A stretch of 64,000 bases of DNA from Candidatus Omnitrophota bacterium (GCA_028717245.1 JAQUOD010000002.1:76772-140771), one strand, 5' to 3'. Numbered from the stretch's first letter, positions 1 to 21,300 are shown. The notes: a model not told the origin generated them from the sequence alone. Made by a program: numbers and translations.

Positions 1-330
1 ATTAAGGTTGTGGGGCAACCATCAACTGAAACAAGCCAGCCAGCAGAAACTACCACTTCGCCTGCGGATACAGGAACGAAAGAGCAGCAGCCAGCCCAAG
101 CTCCAGTGCCAGTCGAGCCAGAAACCCCAACCTCAGCTCCGACCGCGGTTCCTGCGTCAACGCCAACAGCCGAAGAACCTGCGCCTACTCTTGCTCCGGC
201 CGCAACAGAGCAGCCCGGCGAGCAAGAAGAGGCTGAGGTTAAGGTTGAGGGCGAAAAAGCTCCGGCCGCGGCTCCCGTTGAAGCGAAGCAAGCAGAGGAA
301 AAAGCAGCCGAAGCGCAAGCTGAAAAGGAT
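1..330 (+). other. Low-complexity Pro/Thr/Ala/Glu-rich linker ([16 protein letters not shown]...[16 protein letters not shown])
   Basis: Direct translation of frame +1. Confidence 0.6.
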
Positions 331-3300
331 TTTGAAGCTGTGGAGAAATTATATGAAGAAAAGAATTATGCGGATGCCATAGAGGCATATACCCGGATAA
401 TCAAACTAGCAGAACAGATGAGTAAACAGTCTGGTTGGTGGGTTACTAAATACGCATATTTTGGGCGAGGGATGTGTTATGTAAAACTTGAGCAAACCGC
501 AAGGGCAAGAGACGATTTCCTGATGTCGATAAAGAATGGTAATGACGCTTGGTCTAGCATTATGCTCTTAAAGTTCAAAGACGCCTCGCTATTAAATGAA
601 ACCATAGATAAGATTTTAGAAGTAAAGGTTAATGAAAAGGACGATGTGTATGCTTTAAGTAGCCAAGCATATTGCTTGTTAGATTATGCAAGACGCACAA
701 AGGGAACAGCAAGGCAGGCGCAGTTATTAAATAAGGCAGGGGAATGTTTTAAAGCAACAGTTGGAAGATGGAAAGAGGTCAAATACGAAGAACATGAAGA
801 AACGACCGAGAAAAATATAAAAGAGATAGAAAGCGAGTTAGCCAAATTAACAGGAAACAGGGACGGTTCTAACGGCCCGGCAGCACCCAAAGATGCTTCA
901 GCAAATGGATTACCCAGGCCGCTGGTGAATATAGCGGTGAAATTGTCGCAGTTATTAGCCGGCAAAAATATCAGGGATTGGGCGTGGAGGTTAACGGATG
1001 AAGACTTAAATAGAATACAGACGGCAGCAACTTTATTAAAAGATAAAGGATGCATAAAGGATGAAGAAGAAGCAATGGGTATCCGGTTTATCCGTGCCCC
1101 GCCATCTTGGCTGCTGAAGATTTTATGGAGAATTATTAGTGCTGTAAATTATGTGGATGCGCAAGGAATCATTTACATAATCCTGCCTGGAAATGCCCCA
1201 TCCTACAAGATTGCCCATGAAATCTGGGCAGTATTAAATGATACAAAATATCATACAGAAAATCCGATAAAACTCGGTAAAGATAATTCAGCCCAGCCGC
1301 AAGCCACAAAGAAAGCTACCACGCCAGACCCATCCGCCGCGCCAGCCCAGGTAACCCCCACCCGACATAATATTCTGTTATTCGGCGCAATAATTTTAGC
1401 TGCAGCGGTGTTCGGCGGATTGAATGTTTCGTTTGCTTATGCCTCAGCTAAGGCAGGGCAAACAGGAGAAGGCATTGCATTAGTTATTATTATACCTCTT
1501 GTTATTATCGGGTTTAGGTATTGCTTGCCATATATAATTAGAAATTGGCAGAGGCAAAGAAAGCAAAAGCTTAGCCGCAGACTCGGCAATTATAGGGATA
1601 AAAGCGGGGAGGCAGCTGTCATAAAGGAAATTGAGGGAATAGCAGAGTATAAAAATCCGGATGATCTAAAGAAAGTAAACGCTCTTATCGCATTATTATA
1701 TTGCGGGACTCCGGATATACAACAAGCTGCAGCGCAGGCCTTAGGTGAATTAAAAAGTGATAAAAAAGCAATTAAGAGGGCAATGCGCGTTTTGTCTAAA
1801 ATAGCTTGGAATAGCGGTATGGATAGTAAAACCAATAACGCAGCGGAAAAAGCTTATTTTAAGTTAGCGGATGAGATGGACTTAATAGAAAAAATAAAGG
1901 CCGCAATAGATGGTAATAAAGAAGCAAAAGAAGAAGCAATAGAAGCTATTTACAATAAGGCAGATGGGATAAATAAAGAACTTATTGTTCACAGCCAGGC
2001 AGTGTATGTGGATTTCTACGGTTGGGTAGAGCACTTAATAAGGAATGGGCATAGCAAGTCTTTGTATATGGTAATTACAGCACAAAGAGGAGAATTAAAA
2101 GAAATTAAGTCATTAGTAAATAAAATTATTGCTATACAAGGACGTTTCGAGAGAATTGAGCAAAGACACGGCGCTCTTTCTGAAGAAGAACTCGATGATC
2201 TCGATATAGCCGGGTCATGGTTTTATGCCGCTGATATAAATGAATTAAGAAAGTGTCTGAAGATTTTTAAAGATTTTACTAAGAGAAACGGGAATATACC
2301 TCTAATAGATGCCCTTAAGAAAATTGCGATGGTAGCGATGAGGACTTTATTCCAGCCGCGGGGGGAAAGAGTAAAAATAGGAAGTAGAACGCCGGAAGAC
2401 ATAGTTGATATGAAAACTAGAAGCCTGAGGATGCCTAGGGAAGAAGCGGATGCTTTAATAATACGAGGCAGGGTCATAGGTGTTAAAGATGTTTGTTGCG
2501 AATTGCCGGCTATGCGCGAAACTCCCGATATGGCTGAGGTGGCGGGTAATGTGCCGGGGGGTGATTATAAGATAACTAACGCAGGGTCCGGCTGCTCAAT
2601 ACTTAAAACTATCGAGGTGACATCCTGTTTAATTTTAGCAATTTATGATGACAAAAATCATGTAGGGCTTCTGGCGCAATTTCCTTATTTTTATTCCATT
2701 GAGGAAACCTTAGAAAAGATGCTCTCCGATTTAAAAGAAAAAGGCGCAGATAGAAATAATCTCAAGGTAAGAATTAGTGTGGGCTATACATGGTGGAATA
2801 CTCTTTATAGAGGTATGTTAAGCGAGCCAATAAAATCTTCTTATAACGGCTTTGATAATTACCTCGCTCAATATTTTGACCCGCGGGGGGCAGGGATTGA
2901 TAGGGAACTCATCGCTGCGTTTATTGATAAAAGAATCCCTGTGGAAATTATCTGGCATCCCGCAGAAGCCCGGTCTATCGCCTTTGATACTAAGACAGGT
3001 AAGTTATATAATTTGCGTGCTCCAATTGGCAGGGGGCGCAGTTTTAGCGGCTTAGCCGGTATAGCGCTTTTATTTGTAGCTGCGCTGGCGGTGGTAGATT
3101 TGATTGTGAGAGTGCCCGGACTTGAGTCTCCTATATTATTGGGAATGGCGTTTGGTATAGGGCCAACCGGTCCTTTTGGTAAGAAATATCCATATTTTGG
3201 TTCTGTAAGAGAACCGGCCAGGCAAATCTTATTAAAGTTGACCTATAACGATTTACCCGATAATGTAAAGAAAATATTTGAGGCAATGTATAGTGAGGGA

Positions 3301-6300
3301 GATATCAGTAAAGGCGCATTAGAGGTATGGGTAGAACGTACCTTCGGGAAATTTCAGGCCGAGCAGAAATTAAGGGAGGCGCTTGAGGTATTAAAAGATT
3401 TAACGCCTGAGAGACTTGAGGCCTTAGGCATTGCCAGAAGCGGTAACGGTATACCCCAAATAGGTAGTTTGGCAGGAAGAGCCTTCTTTAATGAACGGCT
3501 GGATTTGGATAGAGATATGTTAGAAGCGCTAAATGCTTTGGAAATAGTATCTAATAGAGATGTGCTTCCGGATTCCCAGTATGCTCATCTAGCCAATATT
3601 AGCCTGGTGCATTTGATAATTTTATATAAGGTTTACCGGAATAAAGTCTACAGGAGAGGATTGGGATTAAGCGAGAAGGATAATAATTTCATAGATTTCA
3701 TATATAAAGTTTACCGCGGAAGAGCGGAAACGGAAAAAATAAGAAAGTTATTTCAGAATCTTACCCTGCAAGACTTGCAAGAACTTTCTAAATATACAAA
3801 TCCTGAGGATAGGTTGAATACGATACAGCATAAATTGAAAGAAATGATTAACAAGCTTAAAAATGATTGTCCCACAGAGGGAGAGAGAATAGAAATGATA
3901 AAGGGGCTTTTAGAGGGATTACCGGCAGGGCAAGAGCCTATGTTACGCATCTTAAATGAAGACTGCGAAAGGTTAGCAAAGGCAGCGCCCCTCTATCCTT
4001 ATTTGATAAAAGCTATTTGTGACCACTACTCCCGTAAGTTCGGCAAGCATTGGCTTTTGCTTTTTGTGGCCAGAGACGCCGGATCATATTTTGAAACAAT
4101 TGACCAGATGGTTAAAGTGGGCTTGATAGATGCCATCTTTTCTATTATTTATGTAAGCGGAGCAAATTATCCCGAAGCAAGGAACGCCTTCTACCAGGGC
4201 ATTAAGACAAAAGAGGAATTTGAAAGGGAATTAGAAAATAATCCCGAACTCAGGTCAGAGGTTGAACGGCTTATCCAGCAGATGAAAGATTTGAAAATTT
4301 TAAATTATGAGCAGTTAGTCATTATGGATTCCTGGGGAACGGGGGCCACCCCTTTATTTATGAAATTGACTATGGAGCACTGTTTAGCTGAATTAGGCAG
4401 GAGGATGAAAGTAAAGCCGATAATAAACGCAGAAATACTGGAAGTAAAGCTTAAAGAAATTAATAGCAAGGGCGAAAAAGTAAGCCCGAACACAGAAAGC
4501 CGTATTAATGTTACCACCCTATTGGAGTTACTCGATGATGAGAAACTTGATAAAGAATTAGTAGCTAAATTAGAAAATTCTATTAATGCGGTTGCGGCCG
4601 AATATAAACTTTGGCCGGTAGAACCCGGATTCCTGCCCGGTAAGCCCGAGGGCATACTTTTCTCTTATCTGCGCGCCATGCTTACCTATAATAGTATAAT
4701 TGAGTATATGAATAGTTCAAAAGGCCCGGATGATTCCGCTACCACAAACGGCAAAAATAACGCTCCTATGGGCGGCTTTGACCCGGCCCGCACAGACGGT
4801 TTGGATAGGCTCCCGGCAGAAAAAACAGAGGAAGCGCGGGCAAAGCTAAGAGGCATTATTAATGATTATGTCAGAAACTCCAAGGATGAGATTTTTGGCC
4901 TTAAGGAGATAGAGTCTGATGCGCAATCAAAGCTGAAGGTTATCGGTATATTGAAACAGGGAGGTTATCGCGATATAGCAAAAATCTTACGCCACTCCTT
5001 AGTAGCGCGCGCTCCGCCCGGATTCGGGTTAATAAAAGCAATCCAAGATTTTGAAAAAGAGTATGGTGTAATTGTGTATGCCGTTAACATCCCCGCCAAT
5101 CTTTCCCCGGTAAAGCAGAATATCATTGTAATCATTAATCAGGCAGAAGAAGAGTTAACCCCTTCTATTGCTCACGAAGCAGCCAGCCTCAAAGGGTTAT
5201 CCGATGAAGAATGTAAGGCATTTGAAGATAAATACACCCGTTTAGAAAACAGATACCTAAAAGCAGAAAACTCCGCGTTAAGAAATGAGGTTATGGTTGA
5301 TGGGCTAACCCGGTCTTTTAACCGCAGGTATTTTGACCTGTCTTTATCTACAGAAATAAAAGAGGCGCTAAGATATAAATACCCCTTGTCTTTATTGATT
5401 TGCGACATAGATAATTTTAAGCGCGTCAATGATAGCTATGGCCATCAGGCAGGGGATTCTGTTTTGCAAGAATTATCCGGGCTCATAAAGAACGCGGTAA
5501 GGGCAAGCGATATAGTCTGCAGGTATGGGGGAGAAGAATTCGTGATTATATTGCCTCATACCAGCGAGGAAAAAGCAGCGGTTGCCGCTGAAAAGATTAG
5601 AAAGATAGTTAAGATGTACAGATTTAACGCCCTCGCAGATGGCATAAAAATAGGGCTTACAGTAAGTATAGGAGTGGTGAGTTTAGGGGATTGCGTTTCT
5701 ACGGAAGAACATCTCATAAAGAGTGCGGATGCTGCCTTGTATTATTCTAAGGCGCAAGGAAGAAATCAGGTTACCCGTTATTCCCGGATGCCAAGAGCCG
5801 TCGATTCCGCCTGCGAAGCGGACAATAATGATTCTTATAAAGTCCTTGAGATGGGCGCGGGCTACGGGTATTCCTTACTTCAGTTAAGAGAACTCCATCC
5901 TGAATGGGAGATCACTGGTATTGATAAGGACAGCCTTGTAATTGAAGTAGCCAAAGAAAGCTGCGGCGAAAAGATTGAAAACATGGATGCTACGAGTACT
6001 TCCTTTGCAGATGGAACGTTTGATTTAGTCATCATAAATTATCCTTTGGATACCAATACGGTCCTGAACGGTTTCTTGAAGGAGGCGTGTCGGGTTCTCA
6101 AAGTGGACGGAAGAGTAGAAATTGTGACTGAGGCTCCTCGCTTTGGTAATCATTTCTCGGTTGAGCAAGCAAACATTTTACTTTCTGAAAATGGCTTTAG
6201 GAAGATAAAGATAGGCCCGCGGCCAGCAGATTATCCTAAATCTAATTTTGATTATCTTGACCTTGATCCTACCGGAAAATTCCACCCCATAAATCCGTTC

Positions 6301-9300
6301 CTTATTGCCGGGTATAAAAAGTCTTTCGCGCCCGTTCCCGGATTGAATATGCCTCCGGCGCAGGAAACGGGAGAAAATGCTCTCGCTCAGCTTTTTTTAA
6401 ATCGCTTATATACGGCTGCTAAGGAGAAATCAGGGGTAAGGGCCATGGCGATGGTGGATACTTACTTGAAACTCTATCTTTATGATTCCGTGCCTGTTGT
6501 GGCTTTACCCGGCTCTTTTACGTTAGAGCTGTTTAAAGGAAAAGCAACGCAGGAACAGTTAGAGCAGATTAAGGCCGTGAAAGAAATATTATCCATACCC
6601 GAAATTAGCGCGTTGACCGGGCACGATAAAAATAAGGAGAACGAATTCCTGACTAAATATGTTTATGCACATTTTGCGTCTCTTAAAATTGGAAAAAAGC
6701 AAAGCATCCTTTCCATATTGCCTTTTATCGGTGCCACTCTTCAAGGGGCAGTAATTCAAGGAACAGCTTATTCGTCCAACATCCTTAGCAGTCCTATTTT
6801 CTGGGGGTTAGTGGTTGCGGTTGGTTTGACAGGTGCATTGGTTTATATGGTTAGGAATTGGGGGAAAGTTAAAGATGTTCTAATCCGCAGCCCGCCTGCC
6901 TTAAAGAAGGCAGTTTCTGTCTTTGCGGCGGCATTAATATTTATTGCCATTCCTGCGCTTACTTTTACCTGCACGCCGCAGTCCGCTACACCGCCTATTA
7001 TTCCTCCAGCACAAGAACAACCCGTAATTCCCCTCACAGAGGAACCCGTAAACATAAAGATTGCCCCTGGAGATGTTGTTGCCGAAGAGCTAATCAAGAC
7101 AACCATAGCTAACCTTTCTTCTTTACCCACTCGTTATATTGGCACTCCTGAGAATATAGGAACCGCAATATTTATAAAAGACCTGCTAAAAACATATGGC
7201 TATAAAGATGCAAAGAACACTAATAACGAACCTTATTATTTGTACAAAGAGTTAGAAAGCGGCATACCCTTATATGTTGCGGCAGTTATTCCAGGAAAAG
7301 TTAACGGCGCGAAAAATATTATCCTCTCAGCCCATTTTGATGCTTTTTATGCCGGCGCAGATGATAATGCTTCGGGCGTTGCGGCGCTGTTAGAGATATC
7401 AAGGTTATTAACAAATACGCATCCTGATAGCGCTATTTATGTTGTATTTACAAATGCTGAAGAGTTTGACGGCTTGGGAGTAAATTCCTTTATTAAAGAT
7501 ATGGTTGAAGAGGAGCGCGTAGAACCAGCGAATAGTATAGTGTTGGATGTTGATTCCATTGGCCAATCGCACCTTAGTATTGAGGATAATAATGGAGAAA
7601 ACAGAGAACCCCGGATTTGGATAACTTCAGTAGATGCTCCGAACCAGATAGAGCCAGTATCCTTATATTACGATACTTCATTGCCGTATAAATTATATGT
7701 AGACTCCAATAAAATGCAGCCACTCTCCGGCGAAAGTAATGCGTGCGTGTTTGCTTATTATGGATTTCCTGCAGTAACTATTTCTGGCATATCGCGTTCA
7801 CAAGCCCAAGAAGTTAAAATCTTTCATACAACCAAAGACGCTTATGGCCGGGTATCCACCGAAGCAGTTAATAGTATTACATCCTGGTTATTAGAAGTTG
7901 TATCCAAGAGGTCAGGTTTATCCGAAGAAATAAAATCCGCAGAAAGTGTGCTTATTTATTCCGATTTGAAAGTTGAAACTTCTGATTATACGGATAATTT
8001 AAGTATTTCATGCAATAAATCGGGTTTTGACTTTATGAATTTGGGTGATTTTGTGGTATCAGAGAGAGGTTACTCTATGGTTTCCGAGTGGACAGAGTTT
8101 TTAAAGAAGAGGTTCCCAACGTATGGTGAATATTTAAAAGGGATTAAATATGGTTATATAAGAGGCCAGTGGGGGGTATCTGGTAATACAGTTGCACACG
8201 CAGATACAAACGGAGGTATAATCGAGGTCGGATTTCCTTTGGAACCTTACCCGATGCGTAATGGTTTATTTGTTTCTTCTCCGTATGGAGGGCATTATTT
8301 CTCTCCTGAAGTTGTAATAACGCATGAATTGGGGCATCTAATTTTGGAGAAAAAGTTTGGCATAGACAAAGGCCAACCGGCATCTGTGGGTGTAAGCAGC
8401 AAAATAGAAGACTTAGGTTATAGCATTCCTTATGTAAATCAATTAGACGAGCTCATAGTTACAGATCTTGCATATAAGTTGTTATACGGAAGAATACCAA
8501 CCGAAGGATATTTTACCGGAAAAATATTCGAATCAAAGGATTACGGCTCTAAGATTAATTGGGAAAGTGTAAAAATAGATTTAAGTTCTACTGAAGAAGC
8601 AAGAGAAGCATTTCTTAAATACTTATTTAATGAAATAGGAGTTGATCAAGATACAGATTTGTTAAAAGAACCTGATTTATCTATTTCAAGATACATTCCA
8701 TTTTTACCCGTTGGAACCGTTATCTCTGGCGGGATTATAGTAAAACCCGAAGATGTAAAAGACGCAGGACCATTCTTCCCGAATTCATTATTACCTACTG
8801 TTATCCCGCAGATGTTATTGCCGGTTGCAGGCGCAATTAACCAGAGAAATAAGAGACTTGTTCAGAAAGGCAAAGTTACTATATTACGTTCAATCATTGT
8901 TGTTTTAGTGGGCCTGGGTGTGGGGCTTGGTGCGTGGTTATCGGCAGCTTTCTTTGGCCCTTCAGCTCCTGTTAACGCCGCCGAGCTTCAAGCGGCAGTA
9001 ACTCCGGCGGAAGCTTCTTCGTCCAACATCCTTAGCAGTCCTATTTTTTGGATAGGAGCAGGGATAGCTGGATTAATGGCTGCGTATCGCTTGGGCATAC
9101 TTAAGAAGGCCTGGCAGGTTGTCCACAGGGCTCTCAGCCCGCCTGCTTTGAAGAAAGCTTTCCTCGGCTTCATAGCATTAGTGCTCATTTCTATTTCTGT
9201 ATCTATCTCATCCTGCAGCTGTAAACCAGAATCAACTCCAACGCCGCCTGCCGCTATAGAAAAATCGGCTCCACCAATTTCAACATCTATTGCGCCAGCG

Positions 9301-12300
9301 CCAACCGCACAGGCGCCTATCTCCCAGAAAGATATTTTAGCTATTACCAATTGGCTGAAAGCAAACGTCAGCACTACCACCGGCTTACCTTTCAGCTTCC
9401 AGATACCCGAAGATAAGAAGAAAGAAGTCTATAGCCGTATGGGAGAAGCTAATTCTGTAAAGGGGATTATTGAACGAATGATTGTAAATGAAGGCTTGGA
9501 AGTATATGACGGCGCTTGCTGGGGGATACTTCTTACAGCGAGCGGCGACAATAAGAACTTAGAGTTAGCCTTTATACCTATTAATACTTATTGGAACGGC
9601 TCCTTAGGCCAGTTGCAGACCATTAGGGCGGGTTTTGCAGGAAAGAATACAGACCAACCATTTATCTATGATATAAATAGCCCTACTTCCGTATCCGCTT
9701 CTTTGGCGGATAAAGGAAAACGCGGCTTTATCTTCAGGATTATTGATGCCAATGGAAAATATAATACTGCTGACCCGTTAGATGGGAAGACTTATCTCCA
9801 AGGGTTCCCTACCTGGCCTACTATCCACTGGGAAGATTGGAAACCTATTGCCGGCGAGAACGCTTGGATAAGTATGCAGGCAGCGCAGTATCATAACGTT
9901 AAGCATGACGCCGTTTCATTACAATTAGCAGAAGAATTAGCCAGGACAGCCATATTACTGCAGGCAGAGAACGGCGGTATTCGGATGGCTCCCATTGGCA
10001 CTTGGCATGAGCAAGGTTCCGAATTTTATTATTATGAAATCTCTACGGAAAATAACCACTCTTGGTATAGTGCCTTCAGGATGCTTTATCAGATAACCGG
10101 TAAGGATATTTACAAAAAAGCAATGGAAGGAATTGAACGCTACTTTAAATCTGTTTGGGATCCGGAAACCAATACCTTCTATCAGGGCGCGCATTACACT
10201 AATGGCCGGTGGGTTCTTAATAAGAGTGACTTTGCGGAGGATTGTCAGAGCTGGGGAATTGATGTCTTAGGGCCGCAGAAGATAGATTCCTGGTTTGGCG
10301 AAGGCGCCTCTTATAAGATGTGGAAGAAGACCAAAGAATTATCCGGATATTATCAGGGGAATAAATTATTGGGCGTGGGGTACACCGCTGAACATGATCA
10401 GCTTTCAGTAGAATGGACAAACGGTGGGATTTTTGCTACCAGAGAGTTAGCTACTTATTATCAAAATACCCATCCAGATTGGGCAAAAGAATGCGCTGCT
10501 GATGCCCAGAGCATGAGAGATGGAGTTGAGACTCTGAAACAGGAATCAAATGGCAAAACCGGTTACTCTTATTCTTTAAAGAGAGAATATATACCGTTTG
10601 GATGGTATTCACACGAACCGTCAGTTTTAAGCACTACATCTACTGCCTGGGTGGGATTTGTAGATTTAGGTTATAATCCTTTCTATTTAGGCGGAAAGTC
10701 AGGAGTAGTTCCTGCTACGGCACAATTACCGGCAGCTACTGCGAAAGCGACGCTGACTCCGACACCGACTCCAACTTCTGCTCCAATAACTCCCCAGCAG
10801 CAAGTGAAAAAGGCATTAGAGGTAGATTTAGGAAACTTACAATATTATTCCGGCACAGGCTGGGCTTCTTGCGCTGTGGACGTGGTCAATATTGACGCTT
10901 CAGGATACGATACGCTTAGAATTAAGGCATCAGGCAAGGCAGGGGATAAGTTTATTGTGCAGTTGCTTGATTCCTCTATGCACGATGATAGTTCAAGCGG
11001 GATAAGTTCAACAAAGGCCCTTTCCGGTAGCTCTCAAGAAGTAAATATACCTCTTTCAGAATTCCGCGGCGTAAATCTAAAGAGCGTGCGCCGGATTGCT
11101 ATCCATTATGGCCGAAGCGCCTGGGGCAGTGCTCTTAACCCGCAGGGAGCAGATATCGGATTAAACGGCATTACCTTTATTTCAACACGGACAGCCGGAC
11201 TTCTGCCGGTTGCGCCAACCACAGCTTCATTACCTTCTGTTCCTTTAGCCACTATTCCGTTAAATATGCTTCTAGCGTTGGCAGTTGGGCTTATCCAAAT
11301 AAAGAAAAGAAACAGCAAAATAAAAGGTTCTAATGTCGGACTCCTAAAGAAATCCGCAAAAGAATCTTTACAAGGTAAATCTAACTTTATAGGCGATTTA
11401 GCTATTAAGGCATATTTAACGAAGGGTTGCCTGTCAGGATTAAACAGGAGAGCGGCGATAGGAATACCTGTCGCGCTTATGCTCGCAGTAATCCCCGCCA
11501 TAATGCAAAACATCGAAGTTCGGGCGCAATCCGGGACATTACAGATAACCCCGCCAAGTAATCCACAATACGCTTCAGGCACGAATTGGGCCGCTCGTTG
11601 GGTAGATGTAGGAAATATCAATGTTTCAGAATACAGCGTTTTAAGGCTTAATCTATCAGGCAATGTTGGAAATAACTTTATTGCACAGTTATTAAATACC
11701 TCTATTACCGATGATAATAGTTCAGTTGGCAAAAGCCCGGTATATACTCTGACTGTTGCTTCTCAAGACATAGATATACCTCTTTCGGCATTCGCTGGCG
11801 CTAATTTGAGTAGTATTCGCAGGATTACTGTCCATTTCGGCGCGACCGCTTGGGGGAACTACCTTAATCCTCAAAACACAAATATAATAGTAAACAGGAT
11901 TGCCTTTGTTGACACTATTGCGCCTGCTATCTCCATAGTTGCTTCTTCAAACATCACCAGCTCTTCAGCGGTGATTACCTGGACTACCAATGAGCCAGCA
12001 GATTCGCAGGTAGAATACGGCACCGGCACAAGCTACGGCTCAACTACCAGCTTAGATGCTGCTTTAGTCACCAGCCATTCAGTTACTCTCACAGGCCTTG
12101 CACCCGGCACTACCTATCACTACTGCGTAAAGAGTAAAGATGCCGCAGGAAATCTCGCTCCCGGAACGGACAATACCTTTGTTACTCCTGCAGCTCCGAC
12201 TCCCACTCCGACGCCTACGCCTACACCGACGCCTACGCCGACACCTACACCAACTCCAACTCCAACTCCAACTCCGACTCCGACACCGACACCAACGCCG

Positions 12301-15300
12301 ACACCAACACCAACGCCTACACCCACTCCGACGCCTTCTAAAATAAAGGGAGTTACCTTATCCACGGTACCCAAAGGGAAAACCGATAAAGACTTAATTC
12401 TCGATTTAGCCTCTGTGGGCGAAGCCAATATTAAATTAATGTCTCAAGCAGGAATAAATACAGTAAGGACCTATTATCCTCCTTCCGGAGACTTATTAGA
12501 TGCCTTTGCCAGATATAATATAAAAGTAATTATAGGATTCCCGAAGGATGATTTGAGAAATATTCTTGAACAGTATAAGGCGGATATTAAAGGAGGCAAA
12601 TACAAAGATTACATAAATCAGTATAAGAATCATCCTGCGGTCTTGATATGGGAGCTGGGTAATGAATATAACCTGCATCCGGAGTGGTTCGGCGGGGATT
12701 TAAACAATTGGTGGTCAATGCTGAAAGACGCAACCACTGTAATCCATAGCATTGATCCTAATCATCGGGTATCCACTACTTTAGGATACGCGAATTTATC
12801 CAGCGATATCCCGCAAGTAGTGGCTGCGGGCGTTGATGTGATTGGCTTAAATTACTATGCAGGGGGGGATAATTATTCAGCTGCGGTTACGGAACTAAGG
12901 GCGCTTACAAATAAACCCATCTATTTTTCCGAAGGCGGGACAGACTCTTACAATAACAGTATAAATAAGGAGAGTCAAGCTGAGCAGGCCCAGGCAGTGG
13001 TAAATATTTGGAATTCAATTAAAGATGCGGATGTTTTGGGGATTACCTTTATGACTTGGCAGGATGAATGGTGGAAATCCGGAAATCCTGCTGCCCAGGA
13101 TATGGGTGGATGGCCTACTCTTGCTGCCTATGATAATTTTATAAACGATGAATGGCTGGGCTGGAAAACTATAGACAAAATACGTAAATTGGTTTTAAAT
13201 GAAATTGCTAAGCTGTGGACAGGGGCGCCTCTGCCAGCAGCGCCTGTTGTTTCACCAATTGTCCTTTCTGGTATCACCACTGGCTCAGCTGTAATTACCT
13301 GGGAAACCGATGGGCCAGCGGATGCGCAGGTAGAATATGGCATCGACACAAGCTATGGTTCAGCCACTACCTTAGATGTTGCTTTAGCCATCAATCACTC
13401 AGTTACTCTCGCAGGCCTTGCCTCCGGCACTACCTATCACTACCGCGTAAAGAGTAAAGATGCCGCAGGAAACTTGTTTACCAGCAATGACTATGTCTTT
13501 AGCACTCTTGCGCCACCTGCTCCGCCTTCAGGCGGCGGCGGTGGTGGTGGAGGCGTAGCACCGATAAACGCAAACAAGCCTCCGGTAATAAAAGATATAC
13601 CGCCACTCAACTTAACTCTCGGCCATAGAAGGCTTCCTATAAACTTAAAGGATTATGTTTCTGATGATACGACCCCCGATTCTGATTTAATCTATAATTT
13701 TAACCCCGCTGATTTAGACCCCGATGTCAACGCTACTTTAACCGGCCCTATCTTAACTATCAGCGCTCCGCCGACTTGGGAAGGGCCGACTTCGCTGGAT
13801 ATCACGGTAACGGATACAGGAAAGGCCTCTGCCTCATATACATTGACGATAAAAGGTAAAGCTAATAAGGCACCGGGAGTAATAAAACCTATACCGCAAT
13901 TAAATTTCTTTACCGATAGGAGAAAAGACAGCAGAGACTTAAAAGATTATTTCTTTGACGAGACTATTGTGTCTCCTTTGACTTACCGCCTTGATAAATC
14001 TTCGTTAAACCCCGATGTCAACGCTACCTTAACCGGTTCTATCCTGACTATCAGCGCCCTACCGAAGTGGGGAGGCACAACTTACCTTAATATTACGGCA
14101 TCAGATACAGAATTAGATACTACATATAAGTTAACGATAACCGGCGAGGCTAATAACCCGCCGGTAATAAGAACAATGCCGCCAATCGCCGTCTTCGCTG
14201 TCGGCAATAAATGGCCCGGCATAAACTTAGAGCAATATGTTTCTGATAAAAACACTGCAGCGTCCAAATTAAGCTACGAAATCATTAATCCCCAAAGGAT
14301 AGACTCCCGCTTGAACGCAACTATTGATGGCAGCCATATTTTACATATTTCTACCTCGGCCAATTGGAAAGGCACAAGCAGCGTTACGCTTAGAATAGGC
14401 GACGGGGAATTGTCAACTGACTGTACTTTAAATGTTTCTGTTAACACCGAAATCCCGGCTCCCACGCCTACGCCTAATCCGATACTTCAGCCTGTTGTTG
14501 ATTTATGGCAGAATACCTGGGTTAAAGTAACTGTGGCAGTAGTAGGGGTAGCCGTTGTATTTAGTATTATCCTTGCTTTCTTAATGAGGATAAGGAAACA
14601 GGGTGGAAATGTTACTGCTTTAGGTTCAATGATTGCCGGCTTAAGTTTCATTGCTGCTGGAGTTCTGGCAGGCTTATTTATTCCTGTCGTCGGTCTCATT
14701 GTGGGCGGGCTACTGGGCGCCGCAGGAGCCTTCTTCATCGCCCAGGCAATGGCAATTGTTTATGCCTTTGTAAAGCAAGGCGGAATCAGGGGCCAGCCGC
14801 GGTATAAGTATCTTACTACTCCTATTGCCCAGCCTACTTATCGCCATCTCGCCTTCAAATATTTGCCAATAATATTCAGAATCTCCATTAACCGCCACGA
14901 ACGGACCCACTTTAAACACAAAAGTGAGATAAGGGCTTACCTTAACCAGGCCTTATATCTAATACCAGATGCTATTAAATCTACGAAAGAATCCATAAAG
15001 GAATCCGCAAAAGAAGCCTTGAAAGGTAAGCCTACCTTTATAGGTAACTTAGCTCTTAGGATTGCATTAACCGAAGATTATTTACCGCGGTTCAGCAGGA
15101 GAGAGGTAATTGCCATACCAGTTGTAGCTGTAATAATTGCTGGCGCAGCAATTCCAGCTATAGTTCAGACTGTTGAAGCGAAGGAAGAATCCGAAGTAGT
15201 TGTTTTTGTTTTGGATAGCGGAGAATATTTTGATTGGCAAGATGCGGTAACGGTTATACTTAAGGATGAGTCTAAGAATATACCGGTTGAAGATACCATG

Positions 15301-18300
15301 AATAAAGTTCATGGTAGCATTGTAACGAAAATTATTAAAGATGCTTGCAGTGGTGCGAAGATAATTTACAAAAATGTTGGCGTAATTAGACCTTCTATAT
15401 ATATGCCGAATGAGAAAAAGTTTATTATCCCCGGTTTTACAGTATCTGTTGTGAAATATCTAACGGAATTAATAGACATTTTAGACTATGTCAAAGTTCA
15501 TCCGCAGGAAAAAATATTAGTTAATATGAGTTTCGGTAATTATGAATACGATCCTTTAGAGTACGCAGTCATAGAAACTCTCGCAGAAAAGGGAGTGATA
15601 TTTGTAGCGGCAGCAGGTAACGATGATACTGACGAGCCTATGTATCCTGCTGCATATGAAGAGGTGATTAGTGTTGCTGCCGCAGGCGATAAATCTAAAG
15701 CGGAATATTCAAATTACGGAGAGACTGTGGATATAATGGCAAGAGGTAAATTTGAGGCAGAAATATTACCCGGGATGGGAATTACATTTGGATTTGCAGG
15801 AACTTCTATGGCAGCTCCTCGAGTGACTGGTTTATTAGCCAGTATGCTTATGGAGAATCCTGAGATTTCTGCTCAAGAGGCAAAGGGGATAATTTTAAAA
15901 ACAGCAGATCCTATGAGTGATCCGCTCTATAAAAAAGGCATGTTAGGAGCGGGGATAATAGATAGCGATGAAGCATTATATGAAACTTCAGAAATAGTAT
16001 TTTTTAGACGGTATCCATCCGGTGTAATTAAGAGTTGGGTAGCACAAGGGAACAGCATATATTCTGTATTCTTATCGCCTGATGGAACAAAATTAGCCCT
16101 GGTTTACAAGGATAAAAATATAGAAATCATTGATTTTGCTAGTGGAAATGTTAAGGTTACCAATGAACGTGCCGATTACGCAAGTCCCATCGCCTTTTTA
16201 CCTCAAGGAGAAACGTTATTCTTTATTAGTAATAAATCTGTAAAGATTATGGATCTCGCTACGGAAGAAGTTAGAACTATGGATGTGCCTAGAGGATATA
16301 TAAGCGATATCGCCTTCTCGCCCGATGGAAATAAACTTGCGTTGAGATTAGGAATAGAGGATAAAATCGATATTTTAGATCTTGCTACCGCAAAGTTGGA
16401 AACCATCGCTATTCCATCAAGCATTATTAGTATCGTATTTTCTCCTGACGGAGCTAATCTGGTAACAAGCTGTTATAATGGGAGTATATATGTTTATGAT
16501 TTAAATGCCGGAAAGGTTAAAGAACTGATAGGATATGAGGATACTTTTGATTTAGTATTTTCCATGGCCTTCTCGCGTGACGGAACTAAATTAGCCTTGG
16601 GTCATGGTACGGGTAATATAACTGTTTTAGACCTAAATGCAATAACGGCTAAAGTGCTAAAAGGGCATATAGATTCAATAAATACTATTGCTTTCTCCGC
16701 GGATGGGGCAAAATTAGTTTCAGGTAGCGTAGATAAAACTATAAGGATTTGGGATTTTAATAAAGAAGAAACCGAGACAATAAGAGATACTAATGAAATT
16801 CTTGCTGTTTTTTTATCGTCCGATGGTAATACGTTGATATCAGCGACCGGAAAAAACGTCAGAGCGTGGGATTATAAAAATATTAAAGCGTCAATAGATA
16901 AATTTAATTATTCTGAAAGACCATTCAGTTTTTTAGAGAGATCTTACATCCTTTCTTGGTGGGAGGGGCTAATATTTTCTGTTTCATCTTGGTGGGAGGG
17001 GCTATCTCTTGGGATACAGGTTTTAATAGTTTCTATCGGTCTCATAATACTTCTTGTAATAATAGATGAGTTAAATAATAGAAATTCTGAAAAAAACGTT
17101 TCTGCAAGAGGCTCTCTTATGGCAGGAATGGCTGCTTGGGTAGCCACAGGTATTATTTTAACTATACCTTTTATTTGGTCAATGATTCCTATGGTAGTAA
17201 TTCTTCCTGTTGTTTTATCGTTGTTTAGTTTCGGAGCTATATTCATCTACAAAGGGATAAGGATTTGGTTAACTAAGGCAGAGGCGAGCCGTGCGCCACC
17301 CACAAAAAAACAGCTTGAAGAATTAAAGAAAAGGATTGGAACTGGTTATAATCTAACGCTTCTTCCCCACGATGGTAGAACCGCCATCGCCTATGTTAAT
17401 AATAAGCGAGTACATATTGACCTATCTCGCTTCTATTATCTCTCCACTCTGATTCAAAAATCTATTCTTGCCCACGAGCAAGCCCATCTTAGAGGCCATG
17501 GCGAAATAATAGCATATTTTAACCAGGCCTTATATTTTATAACCAATATAATCAAAGATATTAAATGGTTACGTAAAGCCTACGACACGTTAAGTAAAAT
17601 AAGAATAAGAATACCTTGGCAAATACCCATCATTAGTAGCTTCATTACTTTGTTTGTATATGGCCTATTCGTATTTTGTAAAGGTGTCCTTGGCGTCATA
17701 CTCTATAACCTCGAGATATCTTTTATTAATGTTTACGCTAATTTATCTTATAGTACTGTTATCAGAGAGCTTACTCTTATTGATGTAGGGAGAGCCATTA
17801 AATCAATTGGATCTCTTCTCGCTCCCGTTACTGCAACCGTGAATTTCCTCTTTCCCTTTGCAATGGCAGGAATAGTAATACTTATGGTCGTTACATTCAT
17901 TGCAAAATGCCAGGATATTTATATCGGTTTACCTAAAGCCCATGTTTTCCATAAGGCACAAAAGCCATTGGTTAACCTCTATTTATCCTTAGAAGGGGAG
18001 AATTTAGAAAATAAGGTACAAGAAGAAATAAAAGATTTACGAGAACAGGTAGAAAATAAACAGATTTCATTAGGAGAGGTTTATTGGCGGGTAGCGAATA
18101 TATGCGAAGGAGCACTTAAAGAAAGAGACAGGGTAAAGAAGGACGCACAAAAAGAAGGAAAAGCTGGCGCAGCTTCTACGTTTGAAAACTGGAACGAGAC
18201 ACAAATAAAAGCTATAGAGCAAATCTGGCAGGATATTCAGGGGGCAGAGGAAGGCAATATTAGCAATATAAGTAAACTTGCCTATGAATTGATAATGTCC

Positions 18301-21300
18301 GGCGGCAAAACAGAATTAGCTTTCTTCATTTTAACATTATGGTATGTAGCAAAGAGTTATTTAGGCCTTGATAAAATAATTTATACCAGCTGCAACGAAA
18401 ATGCAGTAGAAGCTGATTTCGAGGCATTAAAAAAGGCATTTGAGATTATTAATATAAATGTTAACAAAAGATTAAAAGAGAAAGCAGATGAGCGGGATTT
18501 GAATGAATATGCCGCAGACGCCATTACCTTTGTCCCTTATCAGGTCTTCTCGATTGACTGGGAGAGGCATTCAATGGATACCAATCCAGTGATTAATACG
18601 GCAAAAACAGCGTTGCTGGGCTTAGAGTTTGATGCGCTCTTTGATGACCTATTTACTCCTCAGATTCTCTTAGGGGATCCCATCGGGCCGAGCGATATTT
18701 CAGACACTCAACATAAAGAAGTAATAAAAGAAGCAGTCTATTCTTATGCTGAGATACAAAGAATATATTCATTTGTCAAGGGAGAGCTTGAATGTGGAAG
18801 GGATTTTATAGTCAGGCAGTACGCTGATAAAGATGCAGAGGCGGAATCAGAAGGCGCGCGTTTTGAAACGCATTATATTGAGATTACAGAGGAAGGTTTA
18901 GACTTAATATTTAAAAAACTCGGGAATGATAACCGTTATGTAGCTTTGGTGAAAGGCTGTTTAGATGCAATGTACCTTTATCATCAAGGCATACATTATG
19001 TCACAAAGGCGGATGGCCTTCAATTAATACATACGCCTACAGGCCAGATTTTTGAAAATCGCCAATTACAGGACATCAATGTCTGGTTTGCGCTTTATGT
19101 AAAAGAAGGTTTATTCCAAGATAACCTTACGTCGGAGAATATGCGGATAGTCCTAAGTAGTTATTCCGAAACCAAGGATTATAGCAATCTTTTTTCTCTA
19201 TTGGATGCAATGGGTTTAGTCTGGGGCTTAAGCGGGACCTTGGAGCAGGCCCTTTTGGAGCAATTTGGCTATAGCGTAAAAATTATTGATGGCCAAGAAA
19301 TTGAAAAGGCAAGAAGAGGAGCGACCAAGGAAGAGCCCGCCCTGTTATATGCAGGAAAAAATTTCGCTATAGGAAAAGTAATTTTCGAGGCTAAAAAACG
19401 TGCCGACAAGAAAGAACGGGTAGTCATTTATGTGGAGGATGTAGAGAGTGCCGAAGAATTAGAGAAAAGATTTAGAGAACTTGGCATAATAGCGAATTGC
19501 TTAACTCAGGAAATGAGCCCGAAACAGATATCGGAGGTAGTAAAGAATGTCGCAGGTAGGAAGGAAGAGATTACTATTATTACTTCTTCTTCCAGCCGCA
19601 ATACCAACTTCAAATTAATTCTCGACGAGGATCACGGGGAATCAGAGGATTCCGAGTCGGCCATATTTAATTTCCTTATTCTCGGCGGAAGGGATGTCTG
19701 GCGCTGGCAGAGACAGCTTTTAGCGCGTATCCCGCGTTTGACAGGCTATAACGAAGGAATATACCATTTCGATCCTGCGCGAATTAAGAAATTCTATTAT
19801 TTAGAGCAAAGCCTATTCCAGAAATATCCTTCTGTGGCAGAGGAATTAAAGAAAACATTGCGAGGCAGAGAGAAATTAGAATTGGACTCTTTCTCTCATG
19901 AAGCAAGGTGCGCAGATAGCCTTATAGAAAGCATAATGGATATGGCAACTACGGATTATAACCAGCAGTTAGCAGAGCAGAGGATAGTGGAGAAGCCGCT
20001 TACTGTATTAAGGAATGAGTTTATTACAAGGCGGAATGAGCTTGATGACGATAGCCAGAAATTATTAGATGAGGCCTGGAGATTATTCTTAGCGAAAGTA
20101 GAAGATTTAAGGATTCTTCTGAGCGTGCCTTCAGCAAGCAAAGAAGCAACGATAGGCTATTGGGCGGTTCAACTACAAGAGGCGTTTGATAATACGGTAA
20201 TGAAGGCATATAGAGGAGAGGAATTAGAGAAAGAGAAACCCGTAGAAATCGTTGAGGATATATACGGGAGAGAAGTCGTGCCGGGTAGATTAGGGCGATG
20301 GTTAAAAGAATGTGTAATAGAAGCTTTGCGGGGAAGACCCAATCTTATAGGTAAATTAGTTGTTCGGTTATATATTTTATATAAAAATTTTGCAGCAGGT
20401 TTAAAACGTATGGTGCCCTCTTTGTCCTGGTCAACGGCAGGCACAACGGGAATAGCAGTAGTGATAGTGATTAGCGCCGTGGCTAGTACTGGCACACAAA
20501 ATGTTTATGCTCAGTCAAATAACAAAGTTAAAGTTGAAGGTTATCAATTATTAGTGGATGGCAAGCCGTATCAGATTAAAGGCATTACCTATAGCCCTGC
20601 CGGAAAAGGCACGCAGGGAGGCCAGTTCAGCCAATGGTATGAGAAGGATATCCCCTTGATGCAGGCAGCAGGGATAAATACTATCCGCACTTATGGAATT
20701 ATAACTGATAAAAATGTTTTAAAAGCATTTGCCGATGCAGGGATAAAAGTGATTGTAGGTTTTGATAATGCAAAAGATATAGCGACAGGCAACTATAAGG
20801 GTTATATAACCGAACACAAGGATGACCCGGCAATCCTAATGTGGGAATTCGGCAATGAATATAATTATCATCCGGAATGGTTTAGCGGAAATATTGATAC
20901 TTGGTATAACGCCTTAGAGCAGGCTGCCCAGGCCGCCCATAAATTAGACCCTAATCATCCGGTTTCAACTGCTCACGGAGAGGTGCCCGGTAAAGATATA
21001 GTACAAAAGGTTCCTTCGGTTGATGTCTGGGGAATGAATATCTATCGAGGCCAGTCTATCCAATCCGCGCTCTCCCAGTGGGCAAGCCTCTGCGATGAGC
21101 TCGGGATCACCAAGCCAATGTATGTTTCGGAGACAGGCACGGATTCTTTTAATAACTCTAAAGATGCGATAGATGAAGAGGCGCAGGCAGAGGCAACAGA
21201 GAATCTTTGGAGCCAGATAGACGGCTCAAGTAGTATCCATAATTCTAAGAATCCTTCTTTAGGAGTTACTTTTATGGAATGGAATGACGAATGGTGGAAG

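Follow-up and report, generated by a model that had tools for sequence, protein, structure and literature searches.

Peptidase-type domains within a giant multi-enzyme membrane protein of a Candidatus Omnitrophota bacterium

Giant proteins of the Omnitrophota and the present reading frame

The closest described systems are the giant proteins of Omnitrophota, which include the 'Archaeovorins' (West-Roberts et al. 2023), the 39,678-aa protein of Velamenicoccus archaeovorus, and the 'multi-enzyme metabolic cluster' (Nielsen & Lui 2026). These proteins exceed 20 kaa and contain dozens of transmembrane (TM) helices, as does the protein described here, and their published domain sets (10.1101/2023.11.21.568195; 10.64898/2026.06.07.730766; PMC10066038) match those of the present open reading frame (ORF). 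The shared domains are GT5 starch-synthase-like, GT1, PGM/PMM, SAM-methyltransferase, GGDEF, glycosyl hydrolase, TPR, and S8 peptidase domains, while most of the sequence is unannotated in both cases. The roles proposed for these giants are the degradation of host or prey envelopes and possible self-cleavage; it has already been proposed that their S8 and C39 domains cleave the precursor (10.1101/2023.11.21.568195). An M28 domain, an HExxH domain coupled to it, or an S8–WD40 fusion is not mentioned in the Omnitrophota giant-protein papers.

The window, i.e., the whole 64-kb stretch of DNA that was analyzed, is occupied by a single ORF (1..63999, + strand) of 21,333 codons, which is open at both ends. 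Frame +1 contains no stop codon, against 761–1972 stops in each of the other five frames, and RNA genes were not found in the window. The giant precursor invoked in the original prediction is confirmed, and it takes up the entire window. SecA-DEAD-like, C39, NUDIX, and HEAT domains were not detected in the 64-kb fragment, and they may lie outside it, since the gene continues beyond both ends. The same polypeptide contains enzymes of the cytoplasmic type, including GGDEF, methyltransferase, glycogen synthase-like GT5/GT1, PGM/PMM, and GH77 domains, and TPRs are present beside the peptidases and the SAM-methyltransferase. A hydropathy scan of the giant ORF produced 65 overlapping peaks above the threshold, corresponding by eye to approximately 40 distinct TM helices. 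The peptidase region covers aa ~2361–5635 of the >21,000-aa ORF, and all features described below are in frame +1 on the + strand. The peptidases constitute a small share of a multi-enzyme polytopic protein. The protein matches the kind of giant that has already been described, and what is new is a rare zinc-protease-like domain, assigned to no family, that is invariably found after the aminopeptidase.

The M28 aminopeptidase-type domain and the HExxH domain that follows it

The M28 aminopeptidase-type domain (7081..7920) was identified by a Pfam match and by alignment to homologues and M28 chains from the PDB. The match to Peptidase_M28 (PF04389; E 1.1e-19; 71.4 bits against a cut-off of 21.3) spans aa 2426–2633 and is nearly complete (profile positions 2–192 of 193). 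All the zinc ligands (H2445, D2455, E2488, D2518, and H2609) and the catalytic E2487 are present; we take these motif positions to be ligands by analogy with SGAP, AAP, and glutaminyl cyclase. H2445, D2455, E2487/E2488, and D2518 are invariant in the alignment of M28 homologues (A3), while H2609 takes the position of the His in the 'YHT..D' motif of aminopeptidases from the PDB. The subfamily profile matches 36 M28 chains in the PDB (best E 3.9e-16); the comparison of the domain with individual PDB sequences yields just 23–31 bits. The M28 enzymes of Streptomyces griseus (SGAP), Vibrio (AAP), and Bacillus (YwaD), which also match PF04389, share with it the H/D/EE/D/H(T..D) ligand pattern and the near full-length profile match. 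However, the M28 domain of the window is embedded in a giant protein, lacks a PA domain, and is fused at its C-terminal side to an HExxH domain.

Non-catalytic binding or adhesion modules with the M28 fold are exemplified by nicastrin and the transferrin receptor. The peptidase-like domains of the giant could likewise be catalytically dead scaffolds serving only in binding or adhesion, as might be suggested by weak Nicastrin Pfam matches among the homologues, by the replacement of the last M28 ligand His with Asn in three of five M28–HExxH homologues, and by the frequent reading of giant ORFs as adhesins (PMC10066038). Since this last ligand is lost in some relatives, the M28 part of the M28–HExxH family may not always be catalytic. 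For the protein of the window, however, we consider the scaffold explanation very improbable, because all catalytic residues of its M28, S8, and HExxH domains are kept, and those of the S8 and HExxH domains are invariant across homologues at 25–45% identity.

The domain following M28 (7978..8640) carries the HELGH motif at aa 2775–2779 (nt 8323–8337), which is one of three HExxH motifs in the ORF, compared with 0.28 expected from composition. Such a motif would count for little by itself, but here it is unchanged in each of the eight homologues that span the site, as is an E...TD further downstream, so that the invariant positions are H2775, E2776, H2779, E2817, T2821, and D2822 (HExxH...E-x3-TD). 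In alignment A2, HExxH is kept in each of the nine sequences at 25–37% identity. Many gluzincins contain ExxxD after the Glu, in place of which this domain displays E-x3-T-D. The family is very rare, with about nine true relatives among 1.84 billion representatives, and neither the domain nor its homologues or their profile gave a match in Pfam, NCBIfam, or PDB sequences. Judged from its sequence conservation, it is a conserved zincin-like domain outside any of the MEROPS- or Pfam-type families tested, and it probably represents one new peptidase-like family. The original calls of M28 and S8 domains were correct, whereas the predicted HELGH zincin is conserved and zincin-like but belongs to no curated family among those tested.

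The pairing of the two domains is conserved, an observation absent from the original prediction. M28 lies directly upstream of the HExxH domain in six of eight family members, the other two being located on contigs of 996 and 1719 bp; every full-length member places the HExxH domain directly after M28. The stand-alone M28–HExxH homologues are proteins of 630–2274 aa with N-terminal signal peptides.

The AF2 model of the HExxH domain (pLDDT 77.8, pTM 0.82) contains a β-sheet, an HExxH helix (130–147), and a Glu helix (176–190). E2817, a candidate third zinc ligand 38 aa beyond H2779, is placed by the model on the latter helix. PPEP-1/Zmp1 and Wss1 ranked at the top of a PDB fold search, and a BFVD search retrieved a phage 'Metalloprotease' (probability 0.98) as well as SprT-like and IrrE-like proteins. 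These best matches are zincins, but the similarity is weak, with TM-scores of 0.33–0.44 and none at E <= 0.001. The small gluzincin PPEP-1/Zmp1, a Pro-Pro endopeptidase (MEROPS M34), and the minimal zincins Wss1, SprT, and IrrE have in common with the HExxH domain an HExxH helix after a β-sheet and a conserved Glu approximately 38 residues on, in the next long helix; in contrast to them, the domain shows no sequence-level relationship to any of these proteins and is always coupled to M28.

The S8 subtilase, its WD40 propeller and the flanking membrane segments

The S8A subtilase domain (15193..15990) is supported by Pfam, by PDB matches, and by homologue alignment. HMMER aligned only profile positions 99–276 of 288 of Peptidase_S8 (PF00082; E 6e-24; 85.3 bits against a cut-off of 21.8), and the N-terminal Asp and His, which lie outside this alignment, were recovered in alignment A1. 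The active-site residues D5072 (15214–16), H5104 (15310–12), the oxyanion N5207 (15619–21), and S5269 (15805–07) do not vary among the 20 homologues and align with D32/H64/N155/S221 of subtilisin BPN'. The D–H spacing of 32 aa is the same as in BPN', and 149 subtilases in the PDB match the domain at E <= 1e-3. A propeptide of the I9 type is typical of S8A enzymes, although not defining; no Pfam match to one precedes the domain, and the nearest homologues lack it as well. These homologues are stand-alone, membrane-anchored proteins, not giants, and consist of a signal peptide, S8, and C-terminal TM helices. The same order of signal/TM, S8, and C-terminal TM helix(es), with D-H-N-S intact and no classical I9, is found in membrane-anchored S8A subtilases such as the mycosins of type VII secretion. 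However, the mycosin NCBIfam model matches only partially (72 bits against a cut-off of 279), the domain of the window has a seven-bladed propeller between S8 and the TM helices, and there is no association with a type VII system.

This propeller (16018..16905) is fused directly to S8 and was delineated with Pfam WD40 and repeat analysis, which point to seven repeats with a period of ~41 aa over aa 5340–5635 (WD40 E 3e-21; more than 20 propeller models match). Where "six or more" PD40/WD40-like blades had been expected after S8, seven WD40 blades were found, but not PD40 blades: the TolB/PD40 models remain far below their cut-offs. A PD40/TolB identity was rejected with TIGR02800 at 50 bits against a cut-off of 343, while WD40 models score far higher. 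No counterpart of the S8–WD40 fusion occurs among the best 120 matches of either homologue search, which leaves its role without a precedent. Taken together, the three peptidase-type sites predicted at 7081–7910, 8100–8420, and 15190–15960 lie in one frame with their active-site residues present; the M28, HELGH, and S8 domains are real and apparently active.

We infer the membrane topology from a Kyte–Doolittle scan combined with the positive-inside rule. Published work cautions against relying on TM predictions in giants of this kind, and the alternating pattern here is consistent only with the inclusion of two weak hydrophobic segments, aa 2234–2255 (score 1.51) and aa 2928–2947 (score 1.28). 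With these, K+R counts are mostly 2–5 per 15 aa on the 'in' flanks and 0–2 on the 'out' flanks. A TM hairpin (aa 2266–2284 and 2304–2322) with a lipoprotein-signal-like element (26 residues followed by Cys) and a Pro/Thr-rich tether, recognized by hydropathy and motif (6796..6972), is the predicted in-to-out entry to the M28–HExxH ectodomain, which begins after the TM helix, Cys, and Pro/Thr tether. A paralogous copy of this hairpin element spans aa 2990–3099. A second internal lipoprotein-signal-like element (9130..9222; 25 residues followed by CSC) has the canonical I-S-S-C lipobox pattern and also a Pro/Thr-rich tether. A further element combines a twin-Arg, an h-region, and 'VEA', and such signal-like elements sit exactly at the ectodomain entries.

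Between the two peptidase loops, profile searches and paralogue comparison delineated a predicted ectodomain block (11938..14385) composed of an fn3/purple-acid-phosphatase-N-like domain, a GH2-type TIM barrel (aa 4112–4399, one of three paralogues), an fn3/DUF7800 domain, and three Big_9 Ig-like repeats. The peptidase loops adjoin CBM-like, fn3, glycosidase-TIM, and Ig-like domains. Hydropathy, charge bias, and the signal peptides of stand-alone homologues predict that M28–HExxH, the glycosidase block, and S8–WD40 are all outside the cytoplasm.

S8–WD40 itself is bracketed by TM 5036–5054, which lies no more than 10 residues ahead of the 'VVVFVLDSG' strand of S8, and by TM 5670–5688. These helices belong to two further HExxH-containing membrane modules that, like the internal lipoprotein-signal-like elements, were absent from the original prediction. 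Module 1 (14494..15180) comprises three TM helices and a juxtamembrane core (H4966-E-R-T-H plus an 11-residue segment), and then TM 5036–5054 out to S8. Module 2 (16963..17700) comprises TM 5670–5688, TM 5707–5749 (two helices), a core (H5825-E-Q-A-H plus an 11-residue segment), and TM 5875–5893. The modules have four TM helices each and are paralogous (27–36% identity); a β-strand insert of module 2 is missing from module 1. They match no family, including the M48, M50, and M56 models, and no homologues of module 2 were found.

This arrangement could be read as a device for regulated proteolysis or signaling, in which WD40 senses an external ligand or partner and S8 and the membrane HExxH modules relay by cleavage, in a BlaR1- or site-2-protease-like manner, to cytoplasmic domains such as GGDEF. 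The modules do flank the ectodomain with cores predicted to face the cytoplasm, a GGDEF domain is present in the same polypeptide, and PilZ genes are reported downstream of such giant genes. However, neither module matches an M48, M50, or M56 model, module 1 is without the insert of module 2, the AF2 model of module 2 is unusable (pLDDT 45), and GGDEF is more than 3000 aa upstream, and we therefore regard this reading as improbable.

Working model and biological meaning

As a working model, which we consider reasonably likely, the region supplies consecutive loops of a single giant protein (>21,333 aa) that crosses the inner membrane many times, is of the multi-enzyme Omnitrophota kind, and carries a membrane-tethered set of hydrolases. 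Outside the cytoplasm, the first loop would present an M28 aminopeptidase with co-catalytic zinc, joined to the rare, unclassified HExxH...E gluzincin-like domain; the second, the carbohydrate-binding/fn3/glycosidase/Ig-like block; and the third, a prodomain-less S8A subtilase fused to the seven-bladed WD40 propeller. The tethered hydrolases would act in the periplasm or at the cell surface, where the putative endopeptidases, S8 and the HExxH domain, may cut proteins, either those of the host or prey envelope or the exposed linkers of the giant itself, and M28 would trim the N-termini thus produced. The WD40 propeller may serve as a substrate- or partner-binding platform for S8. We infer these activities and substrates; the "macromolecule-degrading surface machine" originally envisaged is plausible in light of the predicted extracytoplasmic loops, the neighboring CBM-like, fn3, glycosidase-TIM, and Ig-like domains, and published hypotheses.

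Subtilases are classic autoprocessing enzymes. The peptidases could accordingly form a self-processing cassette, in which the main task of S8 on the outside, and possibly of the HExxH modules at the cytoplasmic side of the membrane, would be to cut the giant precursor into discrete functional parts, with host signal peptidases possibly helping at the internal signal-like elements. The two paralogous 4-TM HExxH modules that bracket S8–WD40, the two lipoprotein-signal-like elements and the twin-Arg/h-region/'VEA' element at the ectodomain entries, and the S8/C39 cleavage already proposed for Omnitrophota giants (10.1101/2023.11.21.568195) are in line with this explanation. On the other hand, S8 lacks an I9 prodomain that it could remove from itself, and there are no known cleavage sites. 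The closest relatives of S8 are common subtilases that stand alone, anchored in the membrane, and do not form part of giants, and M28, as an exopeptidase, cannot cut the precursor internally. M28–HExxH also occurs in stand-alone proteins and would therefore have a job independent of giant processing. Hence, we regard self-processing as the main function as rather unlikely, although the degradative and self-processing roles of the peptidases are not separable from these data. A more speculative and somewhat less likely proposal is that the HExxH domain is a new metallopeptidase family with M28 as its obligate partner, so that a single secreted module would unite endo- and aminopeptidase, and that the exported units of the giant are released or regulated by built-in processing through the internal lipoprotein-/signal-peptide-like elements and the subtilase–WD40 unit bracketed by the two paralogous membrane HExxH modules.

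The giants of Omnitrophota, which are ultra-small bacteria dependent on a host, belong to the largest proteins known. Whether such proteins remain whole or are cleaved, and which parts of them face outward, can be approached here through three peptidase domains whose active sites are intact, through the explicit topology model, and through candidate processing elements at module boundaries. The M28–HExxH tandem, a two-peptidase module that is rare and lacks annotation, has been conserved in evolution. As ordinary secreted proteins contain it too, it could be expressed and assayed without handling the giant. If a built-in processing system does exist, the long-standing whole-or-cut question on Omnitrophota giants would become directly testable at defined sites; if the domains are only degradative, M28 and the new zincin-like family would join the hydrolases already known from these proteins.

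Reading frame and domain content of the giant protein

The whole window is occupied by a single open reading frame, since frame +1 contains no stop in 21,333 codons, against 761–1972 stops in the other five frames. The frame is open at both window ends (nt 1–63999), so that the gene exceeds 64 kb; a giant precursor, as assumed in the original prediction, is therefore present, and the peptidase region at nt 7081–16890 corresponds to approximately aa 2361–5630 of one protein that extends past both ends of the window. Searches across the window for tRNA genes and Rfam families found none. An exact 51-mer had no match in the genome or metagenome contig collections; pattern and tblastn scans retrieved nothing from the genomes and, from the metagenomes, a single 3.9-kb contig that was already known. 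The GC content is approximately 0.42, with a positive GC skew in every 2-kb window except three. Cysteine is scarce (113 of 21,333 residues), and the HExxH motif occurs three times in the frame, compared with 0.28 expected occurrences.

Upstream of the peptidase region, a GGDEF diguanylate cyclase domain (E 4e-48) is followed directly by a SAM-dependent methyltransferase (nt 5293–6126). Three paralogous GH2-type TIM barrels, which share 35–43% mutual identity, are located at nt 12334–13197, 20566–21420, and 27157–28050. The stretch at nt 42950–63999 carries cytoplasm-type sugar and glycogen enzymes, i.e., a fucose pyrophosphorylase-like domain, a nucleotidyl transferase, GT5 and GT1 (glycogen synthase-like), PGM/PMM, a GH77 4-alpha-glucanotransferase (E 5e-114), and another GT5. 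Dense hydropathy peaks, dozens of them overlapping, characterize nt 30382–34671 (aa 10128–11557), in which roughly 20 transmembrane (TM) helices are counted by eye; this block has no match in Pfam and may be a polytopic domain of a transporter- or glycosyltransferase-like type. Tandem repeats of approximately 120 aa are found at aa 11626–12252. Additionally, two 139-aa segments at nt 37666–38082 and 40492–40908 (aa 12556–12694 and 13498–13636) are 75% identical, far above the identity of other internal repeats, which suggests a recent internal duplication.

The M28 domain and its HExxH partner

Three peptidase-type domains lie where they had been predicted. Two of them, M28 and S8, score above their Pfam cut-offs with intact catalytic residues, whereas the third, the HELGH domain (aa 2640–2960), is conserved at HExxH in its relatives but has no match in Pfam (E ≤ 10), NCBIfam, or PDB sequences, and falls into none of the curated families searched. 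A purely non-catalytic role of these peptidase-like domains is very improbable.

Peptidase_M28 matches aa 2426–2633 with an E-value of 1.1e-19 and 71.4 bits against a cut-off of 21.3, covering positions 2–192 of the 193-position profile. Residues were checked in an alignment with five homologues, and the resulting profile was compared with PDB sequences. H2445, D2455, E2487–E2488, and D2518 are invariant in this alignment, and H2609 is located within an 'xHTxxD' motif; as in SGAP, AAP, and glutaminyl cyclase, these fall on the two-zinc-binding and catalytic-Glu positions of M28 enzymes, all six of which are kept in the window protein. A suspected loss of the last ligand His, based on 'SNA' at the 'SDH' position, was rejected because this His sits in the later motif, where F-H2609-T-T-K-D is matched to 'YHT' in the aligned PDB enzymes; the corresponding ligands are those of C-Y-H247-S-S-C in SGAP and W-H330-T-M-D-D in glutaminyl cyclase. 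Three of the five aligned homologues carry Asn in place of the last His.

When 1.84 billion representatives were searched exhaustively with HMMER, 14 matches to the HELGH domain were obtained. Five of these proteins (P0242 and P0251–P0254) were rejected as TPR/STAND or phage-tail-like, with a match confined to a helical stretch, leaving about nine true relatives. Each of the eight relatives whose sequence spans the motif keeps the pattern 'VV(L/I)xHExGH', and H2775, E2776, H2779, E2817, T2821, and D2822 are invariant in an alignment of nine sequences with 25–37% identity, the profile of which found nothing among PDB sequences. The AlphaFold2 model built on this alignment (pLDDT 77.8, pTM 0.82) contains several short β-strands, the HExxH helix (130–147), and a later helix with an invariant Glu (176–190); as modeled, this is the layout of a gluzincin. 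Foldseek searches with the model gave no match at E ≤ 0.001 in PDB or BFVD, the two libraries searched, and the top matches in both are zincins: PPEP-1/Zmp1 (E 0.06, prob 0.6, TM 0.33–0.44) and Wss1 in PDB, and a phage 'Metalloprotease' (E 2.8e-3, prob 0.98), SprT-like, and IrrE-like proteins in BFVD. The HELGH domain is thus likely to be a real metallopeptidase-like domain that represents a new, very rare family.

Peptidase_M28 is positioned directly upstream of the HExxH domain in six of eight homologues; the remaining two, from contigs 996 and 1719 bp long, are probably truncated. The M28–HExxH homologues are ordinary proteins of 630–2274 aa with N-terminal signal peptides, which indicates that the adjacent M28 and HExxH domains of the window form one evolutionary unit, exported when stand-alone. 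The gene for the 2274-aa homologue P0247 (loci L001 1–16971, JGI contig Ga0247727_10002901, and L002) lies downstream of MshEN/T2SSE/T2SSF (type II secretion/type IV pilus-like) and PBP2/RodA genes, surroundings that resemble the pilus loci reported near Omnitrophota giant genes. Another M28–HExxH homologue adjoins GGDEF and PAS-kinase genes.

The S8–WD40 unit and its bracketing membrane modules

Peptidase_S8 scores 85.3 bits against a cut-off of 21.8 and is aligned only over profile positions 99–276; the alignment of PDB subtilisins to the window domain begins only at the 'NMSFG' region. In an alignment of BPN' with 20 homologues from the database, which reach 45% identity, D5072, H5104, N5207, and S5269 are invariant, aligning with D32, H64, N155, and S221 of BPN', and the D–H spacing is 32 aa in both. 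No I9 propeptide is found at the window S8 domain, and a TM helix (aa 5036–5054) stops ten residues ahead of its first strand. The nearest S8 relatives are stand-alone proteins consisting of a signal peptide, the S8 domain, and C-terminal TM helices; the gene context of one S8 homologue was uninformative.

The propeller that follows was expected to be PD40/WD40-like with six or more blades. Its WD40 nature is retained, with seven repeats of approximately 41 aa at aa 5340–5635, but PD40 is not, as the TolB/PD40 models score far under their cut-offs. With the whole S8–WD40 unit as the query, generic WD40 proteins swamp the search, which carries no information on the fusion; coverage is at most 54% among the best 120 matches listed, none of which spans both halves. 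With S8 only as the query, a WD40 Pfam domain is present in none of the best 120 matches listed. Within the best 120 matches listed for either query, the S8–WD40 ectodomain appears unprecedented.

Two paralogous membrane modules with 27–36% identity bracket this unit at nt 14494–15180 (aa 4832–5060) and nt 16963–17700 (aa 5655–5900). Each is predicted to comprise three TM helices, then a juxtamembrane HExxH core, then a fourth TM helix that runs to the outside, and an invariant 'EIxAYxNQALY' follows HExxH in both. The modules have no match in Pfam, their profile retrieves only designed coiled coils from PDB, and a word-based homologue search gave no matches; an AlphaFold2 model from the two-sequence alignment (pLDDT 45, pTM 0.27) was too poor for a fold search. 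Judged by their sequence, they are possibly a cryptic membrane metalloprotease.

Predicted topology, internal signal-like elements, and proposed function

Dozens of TM helices are detected by a hydropathy scan. TM predictions are described as unreliable for giant proteins (West-Roberts et al., 10.1101/2023.11.21.568195), and the topology model, which depends on two weak hydrophobic segments, is provisional. An alternating topology would place outside aa 2325–2927 (M28–HExxH), 3075–3740, 3843–4834 (CBM-like, fn3, a GH2-type TIM barrel, and three Big_9 repeats), and 5055–5662 (S8–WD40), with mostly 2–5 Lys and Arg per 15 residues on the 'in' flanks versus 0–2 on the 'out' flanks. This arrangement is consistent with the signal peptides found on the stand-alone homologues and with the cytoplasm-type chemistry of the upstream GGDEF/methyltransferase and downstream GT5/GT1, PGM/PMM, fucose pyrophosphorylase-like, and GH77 domains. 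Two β-sandwich-like repeats, 49% identical, stand on either side of the TM pair ahead of the glycosidase block (nt 10834–11214 and 11560–11943; aa 3612–3738 and 3854–3981), the first of which has a weak CIA30/galactose-binding-like Pfam match.

Lipoprotein-signal-like elements are placed at the entries to predicted ectodomains at nt 6889–6972 ('...IPALTFT|C' at C2324, just ahead of M28) and nt 9130–9222 ('...VSISS|C' at C3072). Both end paralogous TM hairpins, in which 'PPALKK' and a hydrophobic helix precede the Cys and a Pro/Thr-rich tether, and they might be signal peptidase II-type processing sites. The TM helix before S8 (nt 15082–15180) has 'FSRRE' at its start and 'VQTVEA' at its end ('[12 protein letters not shown]...IVQTVEA'), and its paralogue precedes the glycosidase block at nt 11428–11526 ('[12 protein letters not shown]...IMQNIEVRA'); in sequence, both resemble signal anchors that open with twin arginines.

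Omnitrophota are characterized by giant ORFs that exceed 20 kb and encode many TM helices (PMC10066038). 'Archaeovorins' are rich in GT5, GT1, methyltransferases, glycosyl hydrolases, peptidases, GGDEF, and PGM/PMM, and S8 domains have been seen and autocatalytic cleavage proposed in giants (West-Roberts et al., 10.1101/2023.11.21.568195). A class termed 'multi-enzyme metabolic cluster', which shares these Pfam modules, has been defined, and 94% of long proteins are membrane-targeted (Nielsen & Lui, 10.64898/2026.06.07.730766). The window protein fits these closely and belongs to the already known giant multi-enzyme membrane proteins. The M28 domain, its HExxH partner, and the S8–WD40 fusion are unmentioned in the texts of all three reports; a peptidase-like family in conserved tandem with M28 is probably new here, together with the S8–WD40 ectodomain.

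Self-processing of the giant precursor is made more concrete by the bracketing HExxH membrane modules and the internal signal-like elements; however, the M28–HExxH module and the S8 subfamily both occur stand-alone, which shows functions independent of a giant precursor, and self-processing is rather unlikely. Signalling via regulated proteolysis, which is considered improbable, and non-catalytic readings are less likely than either self-processing or a hydrolase set. The observation underlying the original prediction is confirmed, and its interpretation is supported in part. The most likely reading, which we favor with some reserve, sees these domains as hydrolases tethered to the membrane on its extracytoplasmic side, among which S8 would act as an endopeptidase with the WD40 propeller as its binding platform, the HExxH domain would serve as a second endopeptidase, and M28, adjoining the glycosidase block, would trim N-termini; together, the peptidases and the glycosidase block would act on external polymers in the envelope of host or prey cells.
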